Made by a program: the position numbers and the translations under genes. Shown in pieces: positions 4,518 through 39,205 of a stretch of DNA of 64,000 nucleotides (the stretch's first letter is position 1; the number at the start of each line of letters is the position of its first letter). The notes below the pieces were generated by a model. That model had not been told where the DNA came from. It saw only the letters and a program-made list of their open reading frames with translations, and did no database searches. The stretch lies in assembly GCF_057098645.1 (NCBI RefSeq), contig NZ_CM169472.1; one strand, 5' to 3'.

Positions 4518-6662
4518 GTGTCCCGTATTATTATGCTGATCCCTACCGGAACCAGCGTCGGTCTGACCAGCGTCAGCCTTGGCGTGATCCGTGCAATGGA
4601 ACGCAAAGGCGTTCGTCTGAGCGTTTTCAAACCTATCGCTCAGCCGCGTACCGGTGGCGATGCGCCCGATCAGACTACGACTATCGTGCGTGCGAACTCT
4701 TCCACCACGACGGCCGCTGAACCGCTGAAAATGAGCTACGTTGAAGGTCTGCTTTCCAGCAATCAGAAAGATGTGCTGATGGAAGAGATCGTCGCAAACT
4801 ACCACGCTAACACCAAAGACGCTGAAGTCGTTCTGGTTGAAGGTCTGGTCCCGACACGTAAGCACCAGTTTGCCCAGTCTCTGAACTACGAAATCGCTAA
4901 AACGCTGAATGCGGAAATCGTCTTCGTTATGTCTCAGGGCACTGACACCCCGGAACAGCTGAAAGAGCGTATCGAACTGACCCGCAACAGCTTCGGCGGT
5001 GCCAAAAACACCAACATCACCGGCGTTATCGTTAACAAACTGAACGCACCGGTTGATGAACAGGGTCGTACTCGCCCGGATCTGTCCGAGATTTTCGACG
5101 ACTCTTCCAAAGCTAAAGTAAACAATGTTGATCCGGCGAAGCTGCAAGAATCCAGCCCGCTGCCGGTTCTCGGCGCTGTGCCGTGGAGCTTTGACCTGAT
5201 CGCGACTCGTGCGATCGATATGGCTCGCCACCTGAATGCGACCATCATCAACGAAGGCGACATCAATACTCGCCGCGTTAAATCCGTCACTTTCTGCGCA
5301 CGCAGCATTCCGCACATGCTGGAGCACTTCCGTGCCGGTTCTCTGCTGGTGACTTCCGCAGACCGTCCTGACGTGCTGGTTGCCGCTTGCCTGGCTGCCA
5401 TGAACGGCGTAGAAATCGGTGCCCTGCTGCTGACTGGCGGCTACGAAATGGACGCGCGCATTTCTAAACTGTGCGAACGTGCTTTCGCTACCGGCCTGCC
5501 GGTATTTATGGTGAACACCAACACCTGGCAGACTTCTCTGAGCCTGCAGAGCTTCAACCTGGAAGTTCCAGTTGACGATCACGAGCGTATCGAGAAAGTT
5601 CAGGAATACGTTGCTAACTACATCAACGCTGACTGGATCGATTCTCTGACTGCCACTTCTGAGCGCAGCCGTCGTCTGTCTCCGCCAGCGTTCCGTTATC
5701 AGCTGACTGAACTTGCGCGCAAAGCGGGCAAACGTATCGTACTGCCGGAAGGTGACGAACCGCGTACCGTTAAAGCAGCCGCTATCTGTGCTGAACGTGG
5801 TATCGCAACTTGCGTACTGCTGGGTAATCCGGCAGAGATCAACCGTGTTGCAGCGTCTCAGGGTGTAGAACTGGGTGCAGGCATTGAAATCGTTGATCCA
5901 GAAGTGGTTCGCGAAAGCTATGTTGGTCGTCTGGTCGAGCTGCGTAAGAACAAAGGCATGACCGAAACCGTTGCCCGCGAACAGCTGGAAGACAACGTGG
6001 TGCTCGGTACACTGATGCTGGAACAGGATGAAGTTGATGGTCTGGTTTCCGGTGCTGTTCACACTACCGCAAACACCATCCGTCCGCCGCTGCAGCTGAT
6101 CAAAACTGCACCGGGCAGCTCCCTGGTATCTTCCGTGTTCTTCATGCTGCTGCCGGAACAGGTTTACGTTTACGGTGACTGTGCGATCAACCCGGATCCG
6201 ACCGCAGAACAGCTGGCAGAAATCGCGATTCAGTCCGCTGATTCCGCTGCAGCCTTCGGTATCGAACCGCGCGTTGCTATGCTCTCCTACTCCACCGGTA
6301 CTTCTGGTGCAGGTAGCGACGTAGAAAAAGTTCGCGAAGCAACTCGTCTGGCGCAGGAAAAACGTCCTGACCTGATGATCGACGGTCCGCTGCAGTACGA
6401 CGCTGCGGTAATGGCTGACGTTGCGAAATCTAAAGCGCCGAACTCTCCGGTTGCAGGTCGCGCTACCGTGTTCATCTTCCCGGATCTGAACACCGGTAAC
6501 ACCACCTACAAAGCGGTACAGCGTTCTGCCGACCTGATCTCCATCGGGCCGATGCTGCAGGGTATGCGCAAGCCGGTTAACGACCTGTCCCGTGGCGCAC
6601 TGGTTGACGATATCGTCTACACCATCGCGCTGACTGCGATTCAGTCTGCACAGCAGCAGTAA
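4518..6662 (+). CDS. pta: Phosphate acetyltransferase
   Basis: 714 aa, GTG start, N-terminus [22 protein letters not shown]; classic ackA-pta operon. Confidence 0.98.
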
Positions 6663-18490: not shown

Positions 18491-20008
18491 TCATCCTTCG
18501 TTATGCATTTCGAGATTTTCCACTTCGTTCTGACGTTGCACTGCTTTGGCGTCGTCATTACGTAAAGTATCGAGGAAATCGAGGTAGCCCTGATCAACAT
18601 CTTTGGTGACGTAGACGCCGTTGAACACCGAGCATTCAAACTGCTGGATATCCGGGTTTTCAGCGCGAACGGCGTCGATCAGATCGTTCAGATCCTGGAA
18701 AATCAACCCGTCAGCACCGATGATCTGGCGAATTTCATCTACTTCGCGACCGTGAGCGATCAGTTCCGTGGCGCTCGGCATATCAATACCATAAACGTTC
18801 GGGAAGCGAATTTCCGGTGCCGCAGAAGCGAGGTACACTTTCTTCGCTCCGGCTTCGCGTGCCATCTCGATAATCTGCTCAGAAGTGGTGCCACGGACGA
18901 TAGAGTCGTCGACCAGCAGGACGTTTTTATCGCGGAACTCGGCGCGGTTGGCGTTCAGTTTACGGCGCACGGACTTACGACGCAGCTGCTGACCCGGCAT
19001 GATGAAGGTACGGCCAACATAGCGGTTTTTAACGAAGCCCTGACGGTACGGTTTGCCCAGAATACGAGCAATTTCCAGCGCGATATCACACGAGGTTTCC
19101 GGGATCGGGATCACCACGTCGATATCCAGATCTTCCCATTCGCGGGCAATTTTCTCGCCCAGCTTCGTGCCCATATTCACACGCGCGCTGTAAACGGAAA
19201 TTTTGTCGATGAACGAGTCCGGGCGGGCAAAGTATACATACTCAAACAGGCACGGATTGCTGACCGGATTGTCAGCACATTGACGGGTAAACAACTGCCC
19301 TTCTTCAGTGATGTAAATCGCTTCGCCCGGCGCGACGTCACGCAGGAAATCAAAGCCCAGCGTATCGAGCGCTACGCTTTCGGAAGCGACCATATATTCT
19401 GTGCGGTTCTCGTCAATATCACGTTTTCCCAGAACCAGCGGACGAATACCGTTTGGATCGCGGAAAGCAACCATACCGTGGCCGATAATCATCGCCACAC
19501 AGGCATACGCGCCGCGGATTAAGCGGTTTGTAGCAGCGATGGCGGCGAAAATGTTGTCGGCTTCCAGCGGGTAGTGGCGGAAGTTGTCCAGCTCGCTGGC
19601 GAAGATATTAAGCAGAATTTCCGAGTCGGAAGTGGTGTTGATGTGGCGGCGTTTTTCTTCAAACAGTTTTTTACGCAACTCGTGAGCGTTGGTCAGATTG
19701 CCGTTGTGGGCAAGCGTAATGCCATACGGGGAGTTAACGTAAAACGGCTGCGCTTCAGAGGCGCTGGAGCTGCCAGCCGTGGGGTAACGCACATGACCAA
19801 TGCCCATATTGCCCTGCAAACGCTGCATATGGCGAGCTTCAAATACATCGCTCACCAGCCCGTTCGCTTTACGCAAACGGAAGCAGTTATTGGCATCTAT
19901 GGTGATGATGCCGGCGGCATCCTGACCGCGATGCTGAAGCACCGTTAAGGCATCATAAATCGACTGGTTAACCGGCATAACACCGGCGATACCGACAATA
20001 CCGCACAT
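18491..20008 (-). CDS. purF: Amidophosphoribosyltransferase
   Basis: 505 aa; N-terminal MCGIVGI with catalytic Cys after Met. Confidence 0.98.
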
Positions 20009-20044: not shown

Positions 20045-20533
20045 TTACGCTCTGGGCAAGAAACTTGACGAGCTTTGCAGATAATCAAAAAACCATCTGA
20101 TGATAAAACTGAACTGCGGGATCAGCTGTGATTTGCTCCAGTCTTCGCTTTTCGACACCCCGGTAAAGGAGTCGAGAAAGAAGAGAATGGCGGCAACAAT
20201 CAACACACCGCGCAACGCACCGAAACAGACGCCCAGCACCCGATCGGTGCCTGACAACCCCGTTTTCTCCACCAACTGGCCTATCACGAAGTTCACGATA
20301 GCACCAACGATCAGGGTAGCGATAAACAGTACCGCGATGGCAATCCCATTTCGAACCAGTTCGTCTTCAAAGCCCGTAAACCAGACTGACAGGTAAGTGT
20401 AGTAATGACTGGCAACAAAGAAAGCACAACCCCATGTCACCAGCGATAACGCTTCACGAACAAAGCCGCGGATCAGGCTAACCAGAGAGGAAAAAGCAAT
20501 CACCGCGATTATGGCGTAATCAATCCAGACCAT
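20045..20533 (-). CDS. cvpA: Colicin V production membrane protein CvpA
   Basis: 162 aa membrane protein; upstream of purF. Confidence 0.92.
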   Translation of the reverse strand: MVWIDYAIIAVIAFSSLVSLIRGFVREALSLVTWGCAFFVASHYYTYLSVWFTGFEDELVRNGIAIAVLFIATLIVGAIVNFVIGQLVEKTGLSGTDRVLGVCFGALRGVLIVAAILFFLDSFTGVSKSEDWSKSQLIPQFSFIIRWFFDYLQSSSSFLPRA

Positions 20534-20590
20534 ATGTGTCCTACGATTTTACGCCCTGTCATCCTGTTCGGGGCGCATTCTAACAGAAAA

Positions 20591-20606
20591 AGAAAACGTT
20601 TGCGTA
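20591..20606 (-). promoter_or_regulatory. PurR operator (PUR box) upstream of cvpA-purF
   Basis: agaaaacgtttgcgta matches the palindromic PurR consensus around AAACGTTT. Confidence 0.65.
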
Positions 20607-20696
20607 GGGATTTCCTTCCCGCGCATCAATAAAAATGGCGCTGAAAAAATATTCAACGCCATCGACTTTTTATGCCTTTGCGGCATCGTTCAATGC

Positions 20697-20967
20697 GTGT
20701 CGGATGCGGCGTAAACGCCTTATCCGACCTACAGTTCTAACCCTGCGTAGGCCTGATAAGACGCGCCAGCGTCGCATCAGGCAACGGCTGTCGGATGCGG
20801 CGTAAACGCCTTATCCGACCTACGGCTCTACCCCTGCGTAGGCCTGATAAGACGCGCCAGCGTCGCATCAGGCAACGGCTGTCGGATGCGGCGTAAACGC
20901 CTTATCCGACCTACGGCTCTACCCCTGCGTAGGCCTGATAAGACGCGCCAGCGTCGCATCAGGCAAG
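20697..20967. repeat. REP/BIME cluster: three tandem ~90 bp units of paired REP palindromes
   Basis: Unit gtcggatgcggcgtaaacgccttatccgacctac...gcgtaggcctgataagacgcgccagcgtcgcatcaggca is repeated three times between cvpA and dedD. Confidence 0.9.
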
Positions 20968-20973
20968 ACCGTA

Positions 20974-21636
20974 TTAATTCGGTGTATAACCCATTACCAC
21001 GCCGCTTAAGCCAGAAAGTTGCTTCAACTCACCCAGCGAACCTTTCAGCTTATCTTTCGAGGCATCTGGCCCAACCAGAATACGGGTAATTTTACCCTGC
21101 ACTGGCGTGGATGGCGACGTATAAACCCGATAACCGGCACCGCGCAGCTTACCGACAATCTCATTCACTTTATCGGCATTTTTCAGCGCGCCCAGTTGCA
21201 CAACATAGGCTTTACCCGTTGGCGCTGCTTTTTCTTCCACGACCGGCTTCGGTTCTGGCTTCGGCGCAGGTGGTGCTTCAACCTTCGGCTTAGGCGGCTC
21301 CACCGGTTTCGGCTTCGGTGGGACGACCGGTGCAGGTTCCGGTTCAAACTCGGTGTTATTGGCTGCAATAGTGGCCGGATCGAGCGACGGTGCTGCGGCA
21401 TCACCTGCCCGCACCTCTTCCGCTGCGCCTTCCGGCGGCTGCGTCGGCAACGCCTGGGTGGCGGCTGGCATCATATCAGGTTCATCGCGATCGCCCGCTT
21501 TTGGCACCAGCGGGATAGCCGCGAACTCATCCTGATAATGTTTTTTCTGCCCGTCCAGCAGCCCTGGAAGTACAATCACCCCCAGCGCCACCAGCACGAT
21601 CGTGCCCACTAACCGATTCTGAAACTTACTTGCCAC
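20974..21636 (-). CDS. dedD: Cell division protein DedD (SPOR domain)
   Basis: Pro/Ala/Glu/Lys-rich linker and C-terminal SPOR; probable GTG start giving 220 aa (ORF track extends to 21654). Confidence 0.9.
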   Translation of the reverse strand: MASKFQNRLVGTIVLVALGVIVLPGLLDGQKKHYQDEFAAIPLVPKAGDRDEPDMMPAATQALPTQPPEGAAEEVRAGDAAAPSLDPATIAANNTEFEPEPAPVVPPKPKPVEPPKPKVEAPPAPKPEPKPVVEEKAAPTGKAYVVQLGALKNADKVNEIVGKLRGAGYRVYTSPSTPVQGKITRILVGPDASKDKLKGSLGELKQLSGLSGVVMGYTPN

Positions 21637-22894
21637 CGCTTCTCCTCGCGTCAATCACTTCCATGACATGTGCGACCGTGTGGAACGAACCACACACCAG
21701 CACGGTATCTTCCGCTTTAGCGTCCGCCATTGCGGCATCCCATGCCTGCGCAACGCTATCAAATGATTTGCCGTTACCCAAATGCTCAAGCAGTTGTTCT
21801 GCCGTGGCACCGCGCGGCCCTTCCAGTGGCGCACAATACCAGTCATCAACCACGCTTTTCAACCAGGCCAGAGTTCCGGCAATATCTTTATCATGTAGCA
21901 TACCGATAACCGCCAGCACGCGCCCGTTTTTCGGTAGCGCTTTCATACACCCGGTGAGATATTCCGCCGCATGTGGATTATGCGCGACATCAAAAATAAC
22001 GCGTGGCGACTCGCTCACAATCTGGAAACGTCCCGGCAAAATTGCGCTGGCAATCCCGTCGCGAATGGCATTTTCACTGACCTCCAGCCCGCTGGCACGC
22101 AGTGCCGCCAGCGCCGTTGCGGCATTCGGTTGCGGGACAAGCGGCAACGCCAGGTTTTCCAGCGTGCCGTGAGCATCGCTAAACGCCCAGTCATGATCGG
22201 TGACGGAATAGTTCCACTCAACGCCCCGACGTTGTAACAGTGCACCTTTTTCCTGCGCCACATCAGCAATGGTAGAAGGCATTTCCGGCTCACCGACAAT
22301 TGCCGGTTTTTCGCTGCGGAAGATGCCTGCTTTCTCGCGACCAATACTTTCGCGATCTGGCCCCAGCCAGTCGGTATGATCCAGCGCAATACTGGTTACT
22401 ACCGCGACATCGGCGTCGACAATATTGGTTGCGTCCAGACGACCGCCCAGCCCTACTTCCAGAATCACCACGTCAAGTTGTGCCTGTTTGAACAGCCACA
22501 ACGCCGACAGCGTACCGTACTCGAAATAGGTCAGGGAAATATCACCGCGTGCCGATTCAATCTCCGCAAAAGAGGCGGTGTGGGCCGATTCCGGCAATTC
22601 CTTGCCCTGCACACGTACGCGCTCGGTATAACGCACCAGATGCGGCGAACTGTAGACGCCCACTTTGTACCCTGCCGCCATCAGAATCGACTCCAGCGTA
22701 CGGCAGGTGGTGCCTTTGCCATTCGTACCCGCAACGGTAAATACAAATGGCGCTGGTTTCAGGACGCCAAGACGCGCCGCGACCTGGCTCACGCGCTCAA
22801 GGCCGAGATCGATAGTTTTACTGTGCAGGTTTTCCAGATAAGAAAGCCACGAAGCCAGAGGCGACGCGGCTTGAGGAGTGCGTTTGATAATCAT
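21626..22894 (-). CDS. folC: Dihydrofolate synthase / folylpolyglutamate synthase
   Basis: 422 aa; Mur-ligase-like P-loop AGTNGKGTT. Confidence 0.96.
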   Translation of the reverse strand: MIIKRTPQAASPLASWLSYLENLHSKTIDLGLERVSQVAARLGVLKPAPFVFTVAGTNGKGTTCRTLESILMAAGYKVGVYSSPHLVRYTERVRVQGKELPESAHTASFAEIESARGDISLTYFEYGTLSALWLFKQAQLDVVILEVGLGGRLDATNIVDADVAVVTSIALDHTDWLGPDRESIGREKAGIFRSEKPAIVGEPEMPSTIADVAQEKGALLQRRGVEWNYSVTDHDWAFSDAHGTLENLALPLVPQPNAATALAALRASGLEVSENAIRDGIASAILPGRFQIVSESPRVIFDVAHNPHAAEYLTGCMKALPKNGRVLAVIGMLHDKDIAGTLAWLKSVVDDWYCAPLEGPRGATAEQLLEHLGNGKSFDSVAQAWDAAMADAKAEDTVLVCGSFHTVAHVMEVIDARRSGGK

Positions 22895-30261: not shown

Positions 30262-30330
30262 GCGTTAGTGCCGAATGCCGCATTGGCGCGTAACGTCGGA
30301 TGCGACGCTGGCGCGTCTTATCCGACCTAC
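30262..30330. repeat. REP element
   Basis: gccgaatgccgcattggcgcgtaacgtcggatgcgacgctggcgcgtcttatccgacctac; adjacent hairpin gggaaccatcgggttccc at 30243-30260 likely terminates fabB. Confidence 0.8.
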
Positions 30331-33735: not shown

Positions 33736-33836
<101 letters not shown>

Positions 33837-39161: not shown

Positions 39162-39205
39162 TGCCGGATGCGGGGTAAACGCCTTATCCGGCTACGAACA
39201 CTGTC
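39162..39205. repeat. REP element
   Basis: gccggatgcggggtaaacgccttatccggctac. Confidence 0.75.

Follow-up and report, generated by a model that had tools for sequence, protein, structure and literature searches.

Between the dedD and cvpA genes of the DNA analysed here (a stretch of 64,000 nucleotides, called the window below, to which all coordinates refer), a sequence of about 90 bp made of paired REP palindromes stands three times in a row. What kind of element is this, does it belong to the gene behind it or to the promoter ahead of it, how was the third copy gained, and does the number of copies matter? REPs in general can affect mRNA stability.

Two classes of REP element, BIME-1 and BIME-2, have to be told apart. 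In PMC3333891, BIME-1 is defined by a single copy, a Z1 and a Y REP and, between them, a long L linker in which an IHF site is often present, and BIME-2 by Z2 and Y REPs, multiple tandem copies and short linkers; the same paper ties IHF sites to the long linker of BIME-1. Strains differ in how many BIMEs they have at a given locus, and in vitro the REP-associated tyrosine transposase TnpA-REP is able to cleave and recombine BIMEs (PMC3333891). Strains have also been typed by the length polymorphism of BIMEs (PMC2817692). Gyrase cleavage sites are over-represented in BIME-2 elements, where most of them fall within Y REPs, Y being preferred over Z2 (PMC6379681).

Results

Anatomy of the array

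The repeat forms one tandem array at 20698-20966, for which Tandem Repeats Finder gave a period of 91, 3.0 copies, 98% matches, no indels and a score of 517. A second repeat search returned three copies at spacings of 91 and 91. A 273-bp repeat at 98% identity cannot be the product of chance. An earlier, sequence-only reading of the window had reported three near-identical tandem REP-pair units of about 90 bp at 20697-20967; these were confirmed, with coordinates off by at most 1 nt at each end.

Each 91-bp unit contains two imperfect palindromes in opposite orientation and runs as a Y-type REP, a 14-nt S linker, an inverted Z2-type REP and a 7-nt linker. In unit 1, the Y-type REP (GTCGGATGCGGCGTAAACGCCTTATCCGACCTAC, ending in CTAC, so that its minus strand starts 5'-GTAG) lies on the plus strand at 20699-20732, where a hairpin is predicted that corresponds to the Y hairpin of the Rfam family naRNA4. 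It is followed by the tail-to-tail short linker at 20733-20746 (14 nt, in the variant form AGTTCTAACCCTGC) and by the Z2-type REP at 20747-20782 on the minus strand (GCCTGATGCGACGCTGGCGCGTCTTATCAGGCCTAC on that strand), the counterpart of the naRNA4 Z2 hairpin. The head-to-head linker AACGGCT (plus strand, 7 nt) forms the junction between units 1 and 2 at 20783-20789 and recurs between units 2 and 3 at 20874-20880. Unit 2 has its Y-type REP at 20790-20823 (plus), the 14-nt tail-to-tail linker GGCTCTACCCCTGC at 20824-20837 and its Z2-type REP at 20838-20873 (minus). The corresponding parts of unit 3, an exact duplicate of unit 2, are at 20881-20914 (plus), 20915-20928 (again GGCTCTACCCCTGC, 14 nt) and 20929-20964 (minus). 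This last Z2-type REP would be the first hairpin after dedD, its stem beginning 9 nt past the stop codon. Unit 1 deviates from the other two solely in the 14-nt linker between its palindromes, and the array is therefore typed A-B-B.

All six palindromes have the features of REPs: they are imperfect, about 35 nt long, with mismatches in the stem, a CTAC/GTAG foot (six of six) and CCTAC at the end, and they are extragenic, lying between the dedD stop and the cvpA start. Small open reading frames within the array (43 aa twice on the minus strand; 56 and 67 aa on the plus strand) consist of REP sequence and recur at the repeat period, and the RefSeq record that is 100% identical here has no CDS annotated under the array; these reading frames are by-products of the repeat. 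Elsewhere in the window, three solitary REP-like palindromes were noted on the plus strand, at 30295-30330, 33741-33774 and 39163-39196; among them are one Y/Z hybrid, one Y-type palindrome and one weak Y-like match.

Element class

Judged by its sequence, the array is a BIME-2 element. Three Y REPs alternate with three inverted Z2 REPs; the linkers, which were classed by length, measure 14 nt tail-to-tail and 7 nt head-to-head, with no long L linker; and the units stand in tandem, three in the window and zero to six across E. coli, in steps of 91 bp. It is this combination of Y and Z2 REPs, tandem arrangement and short linkers on which the assignment is based. For the Y/Z2 typing itself, the main basis is that both hairpins match those of REP325/naRNA4. 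The unit-1 Y REP is also at three substitutions from what we take to be the Y consensus (a fuzzy match), and the Z2 REPs were located with the array's own sequence as the pattern, so that their exact match is not independent evidence.

The array resembles BIME-1 (RIB/RIP) elements in having inverted REPs at the 3' end of a transcription unit. It differs from them in composition: a BIME-1 combines Y with Z1 in a single copy and has a long, conserved L linker bearing the IHF site, whereas the array has Y and Z2, short linkers and three tandem units, and carries neither an L linker nor an IHF consensus. From BIME-2 elements such as REP325 (between yjdM and yjdN), sucC-sucB and tldD-yhdP, there is no difference of kind. 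The shared features are Y and Z2 REPs that alternate in inverted orientation and are joined by short linkers into tandem units, an extragenic location at a gene's 3' end, a unit number that varies among strains, and gyrase cleavage, which for the array locus is known from its K-12 orthologue. REP325 differs in detail, with a 13-nt head-to-head linker and six units compared with 7 nt and three units in the array. REPIN/RAYT systems, in which REP-associated tyrosine transposases mobilise REP doublets, likewise have an inverted REP pair as their module and GTAG/CTAC at the foot of each hairpin, and the stem mismatches in the array are of the kind that TnpA-REP requires in vitro; these systems spread by dispersal, whereas the array has grown by local tandem duplication.

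The K-12 catalogue lists an 83-bp BIME-2 under the label '<cvpA-<dedD' (PMC6379681 Table DS3). The element is therefore already known, both in kind and at the cvpA-dedD locus.

Gene context

All neighboring genes are read from the minus strand. Open reading frames place purF at 18491-20008, cvpA at 20045-20533 (start ATG at 20531-20533), dedD at 20974-21654 (stop TAA at 20974-20976), folC at 21626-22894 and accD from 22964. Positions 20300-21350 of the window are 100% identical to E. coli O145:H28 strain 12E115 (NZ_AP024921.1), in which cvpA and dedD are annotated too. The open reading frames and this annotation agree with the earlier placement of the array between the two genes.

Between the array and the cvpA promoter, a consensus scan and RNA folding revealed a terminator-like hairpin of 12 pairs followed by TTTTATT (20634-20663, minus strand), whose sequence is also conserved in E. 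albertii, Salmonella and Citrobacter. This hairpin is the probable end of the folC-dedD transcript. Further on lies the PurR operator of cvpA-purF-ubiX, AAGAAAACGTTTGCGT, at 20590-20605 (no strand assigned), 93 bp from the array; the identical 16-mer is listed for cvpA-purF-ubiX in ChIP-chip work (PMC3159470). A candidate -10 hexamer of the cvpA promoter, TAGAAT, can be read at 20577-20582 on the minus strand. A scan for sigma-70 promoters found no promoter-like site inside the array.

Since the array begins 9 nt past the dedD stop and the terminator-like hairpin comes before the cvpA promoter, the natural reading is that it would form the 3' UTR of the folC-dedD message rather than a promoter element. 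The sequence-only reading had called it promoter-proximal to cvpA-purF, which holds in so far as the array is upstream of the cvpA promoter; its immediate neighbor is the dedD stop, and the terminator-like hairpin intervenes on the promoter side.

Some further observations concern this region. The cvpA-dedD intergenic region of K-12 (old coordinates 2428784-2429041) corresponds to 20534-20973 of the window. An in vitro run-off microarray study found the K-12 region to be transcribed opposite to cvpA (PMC3141248), a direction that would run antisense to the array in the reading given here. Within dedD, the proline/lysine-rich linker of DedD includes a 24-bp tandem repeat of two copies (21284-21331), and in some lineages dedD is 12 bp shorter (651 vs 663 nt at loci L007 and L009); at L007 the shorter gene drops four residues (KPEP/PKPE) from this linker.

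Gyrase, IHF and the cvpA-purF promoter

The closeness of the array to a regulated promoter raises an alternative, in which the array is an upstream regulatory module of cvpA-purF: IHF and/or gyrase would shape the local topology, and unit number would tune transcription. The distance of only 93 bp to the PurR operator, the differences in unit number among lineages and the mapped gyrase cleavage sites of the K-12 element are all in keeping with this idea. For the cvpA-dedD BIME-2 of K-12, those sites number two with rifampicin plus ciprofloxacin, one with microcin B17, and none with ciprofloxacin or with oxolinic acid (PMC6379681 Table DS3). Gyrase binding, which had been predicted from the REPs, is a fair expectation given the BIME-2 class and the cleavage sites mapped in this single-unit orthologue.

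The prediction of IHF binding is not supported and should be dropped, as should the promoter framing. It is the L linker of BIME-1 that has IHF sites, and the consensus WATCARNNNNTTR has no match at zero or one mismatch in 20690-20973, one-mismatch matches occurring across the window at a rate of about 0.5 per 284 bp. A regulatory module would thus be a BIME-2 without the IHF-bearing linker and without a sigma-70-like site, separated from the cvpA promoter by the terminator-like hairpin. Moreover, conservation of the cvpA promoter region extends to genera lacking an E. coli-type REP here and to E. coli strains with an empty site. We therefore regard an upstream regulatory role as very unlikely and continue to read the array as part of the dedD 3' UTR.

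Copy number across E. coli

To count units, we used a query made of the two unique flanks only (491 + 491 nt) and converted the span of each match to insert length; a query containing the array had matched REPs genome-wide and was ambiguous for alleles of more than three units. The flank query matched 5,425 of 5,426 complete E. coli genomes. An empty site gives a span of 988 nt, and one unit (as in K-12), two, three, four, five and six units give 1079, 1170, 1261, 1352, 1443 and 1534 nt, respectively, a calibration that was checked on retrieved allele sequences; TTTATGCCTTTGCGGCATCGTTC and GTATTAATTCGGTGTATAACCC are anchors on either side of the array. The empty allele reads CGTTCAAGACC, and filled alleles are longer by exact multiples of 91 bp.

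The census comprised 105 different complete genomes, taken as two systematic samples down the match ranking. One unit was found in 66 of the 105, three units in 14, four in 12, two in 3 and five in 2; the site was empty in 3, held a decayed remnant of 74 bp in 4 and had its array split by an IS1397 insertion in 1. Six units were seen in one genome outside this sample, among the best matches. The clean empty sites in 3 of the 105 genomes imply that the element is dispensable. The 74-bp allele, which about 4% of the genomes sampled have, is a mutated fusion of the Y and Z2 REPs (GTCGGATGCGGCGTGAACGCCTTATCTGTACCAGATAAGACGCGTTAGTATCGCATCAGGC); its carriers are loci L008 and L009 (strains MSB1_4I and 500111), H182 and H224.

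The split array belongs to strain JNE25-003 (L011; NZ_AP045053.1, locus 4784-6132), where the transposase gene of IS1397, a member of the IS3 family, lies within a five-unit array. The element is inserted in the loop of a Z2 REP, with GCCA on either side. IS1397 is reported to target REPs (PMC1525189), and the insertion fits this specificity.

The locus behaves as a minisatellite. It shares with bacterial minisatellites (VNTR) the gain and loss of exact unit lengths, differences among close isolates and independent expansions in different lineages; it differs in that a VNTR is a locus-specific repeat, whereas the array unit is a member of a dispersed, genome-wide family.

A recent duplication in the O145:H28 lineage

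Records with flanks 100% identical to those of the window numbered 25, and those among them that are named are O145 or O145:H28. Two units are present in 23 of these, three in strain 12E115 and one in strain C325. The earlier suggestion that copy number may differ among strains was well founded, as the comparison across E. coli gave zero to six units in the species and one to three among the identical-flank records. When unit types are compared, the window has A-B-B, the 23 two-unit records A-B and C325 B. A-B-B and A-B on identical flanks indicate that the window allele is a recent exact duplication of unit B. The compositions in O157:H7 (G-F-C or G-E-F-C) and ST131 (M-N-O) are unrelated; K-12 has C. 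Three-unit alleles have therefore expanded independently in the different lineages.

Could the third unit instead be an artefact of assembly, the true allele being the two-unit A-B? The three-unit form occurs in only 1 of the 25 identical-flank records, and the extra unit is an exact copy, both in keeping with an artefact. However, long reads exceed the 273 bp of the array and paired reads span such a length, and steps of a single unit are found elsewhere too (three or four units in O157:H7, one in C325), which marks them as the normal mode of mutation at this locus. An artefact is thus extremely improbable, and we take the duplication of unit B to be real.

Occupation of the site in other genera

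The dedD-cvpA region was also compared among species, with one genome per species and a 19-mer around the PurR operator (20587-20605; TACGCAAACGTTTTCTTTT on the minus strand) as the query, which yielded at least 120 loci. This 19-mer is exact in at least 120 species genomes of Enterobacterales and Pasteurellaceae. Among the matches listed, the dedD-cvpA gene arrangement holds across Enterobacterales, and E. coli-type Y and Z2 REPs occupy the site only in E. coli and E. albertii, the latter with two units. A single REP-like palindrome is present just past the dedD stop in Salmonella enterica subsp. arizonae, Citrobacter werkmanii and Citrobacter sedlakii.

In several other genera, the position between dedD and the conserved terminator hairpin is taken up by unrelated tandem palindromic repeats. 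Their units are 43-83 bp long, are built around CCCTCTCCC...GGGAGAGGG and reach up to 7.2 copies. Examples are Pseudocitrobacter faecalis (locus L071; 7.2 copies of 59 bp), Enterobacter sp. ENT03 (3.4 copies of 43 bp) and Serratia sp. H1w (L130; 2.3 copies of 83 bp); the Enterobacter loci noted are L086 and L104, and L100 (Lelliottia) has such repeats too. The spot behind dedD is thus one that repeats have colonised repeatedly. The reason may be that the site, next to a terminator, permits insertions, or that structure after dedD brings a benefit.

RNA structure and resemblance to naRNA4

Folding of the minus-strand RNA gave -176.9 kcal/mol (z = -8.95 vs shuffles), with most of the REP hairpins and the terminator hairpin predicted. 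In folds of single units, the Z2 hairpin has 8 + 5 pairs around one bulge and the Y hairpin 7 + 4 pairs with a 2x2 internal loop. Fifteen distinct unit variants, from 10 strains, retain the two hairpins, and 98.9% of their pair cells are standard pairs. The covariation test is formally positive, with compensatory double changes at two pairs of the upper Z2 stem and a score reached by 5 of 500 shuffles; this covariation is weak because the units are nearly identical and both changes rest on two E. albertii units, and it contributes little beyond the fold.

naRNA4 (RF02564) is the sole Rfam family above threshold in the array region. It matches twice and identically on the minus strand, at 20750-20820 (the unit-2 Y hairpin, the 7-nt linker and the unit-1 Z2 hairpin) and at 20841-20911, each match scoring 83.3 bits vs a gathering score of 59.5 and covering model positions 1-77. 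The alignment shows near-identity of both hairpins, with one loop difference in Z2 and a linker between the hairpins that is 6 nt shorter. REP325 consists of six repeats of Y, short linker and Z2 (PMC4550694), and the naRNA4 model is one unit of it. The scan also returned a match to MIR1437 (E = 0.12; 26 bits vs a gathering score of 168), which we attribute to chance. Besides the two naRNA4 matches, the only above-threshold Rfam match in the whole window is a tRNA gene at 56483-56554 on the plus strand.

These matches bring up the idea that the units are genes for naRNA4-like nucleoid-associated RNAs. Two-hairpin RNAs (Y, linker, Z2) would be released from the dedD 3' UTR by processing and, as reported for REP325, would bind HU and act as bridges between cruciform DNA. 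Both matches are full-length, exceed the gathering score and lie on the transcribed strand; with respect to the upstream gene, the hairpins have the order and orientation seen in REP325, and according to PMC4550694 the RNA needs two hairpins such as Y and Z2. On the other hand, the naRNA4 model is in effect a model of the BIME-2 module, so any Y-Z2 pair would match it, and the score measures family resemblance rather than giving evidence of a dedicated RNA. The shorter linker also speaks against such genes, as does the presence of a single unit in most strains and of none in some. On balance we consider dedicated naRNA4-like RNAs unlikely at this locus and return to the BIME-2 reading.

Discussion

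Proposed origin and action of the array

The explanation that best accounts for these data jointly, and that is very probably correct, is a BIME-2 minisatellite in the dedD 3' UTR, placed ahead of a terminator-like hairpin, with about 90 bp between it and the PurR-controlled cvpA-purF promoter downstream. The array belongs to the genome-wide REP/BIME family, which is thought to be maintained by TnpA-REP (RAYT). Whole 91-bp units are gained and lost, be it by slippage, unequal recombination or strand exchange by TnpA-REP, and a single exact duplication of unit B has turned A-B into the A-B-B allele of the window.

What such an array may do can be proposed from the behavior of its family. At the DNA level, the Y REPs would be preferred sites of gyrase binding and cleavage, and gyrase loading might be in proportion to their number. 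At the RNA level, the six stable hairpins may shield the folC-dedD message from 3' exonucleases and may partly attenuate read-through towards cvpA. Translation could also be affected. REPs at most 15 nt from a stop codon stall ribosomes, according to a summary of Liang 2015 in PMC12306157, and the first hairpin, 9 nt past the dedD stop, would be near enough to impede terminating ribosomes and to lower DedD synthesis. Any such effect would be independent of unit number, since the non-empty E. coli alleles examined all share an identical first REP.

Significance of unit number

Unit number itself is probably near neutral. We give very little credence to the contrary view, that it is a heritable, fast-mutating dial, by which additional hairpins and gyrase sites behind dedD would alter DedD output or else read-through and supercoiling at the neighboring PurR-controlled cvpA-purF promoter. 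If that view were true, the larger arrays of the sampled O157:H7 (three to four units), O145:H28 (two to three) and ST131 (three) strains would reflect selection rather than drift, and the unrelated repeats that other genera have at this site would mark a conserved need for structure after dedD.

In annotations, this stretch is best marked as a BIME-2 repeat of the dedD 3' UTR and as neither coding sequence nor promoter; its import beyond that is small. The locus can serve as a length marker for close isolates, in steps of 91 bp, with one, two or three units in O145:H28 and three or four in O157:H7. Finally, the natural allelic series of zero to six units could be used to study how REP number affects mRNA decay, read-through, gyrase loading and DedD translation.
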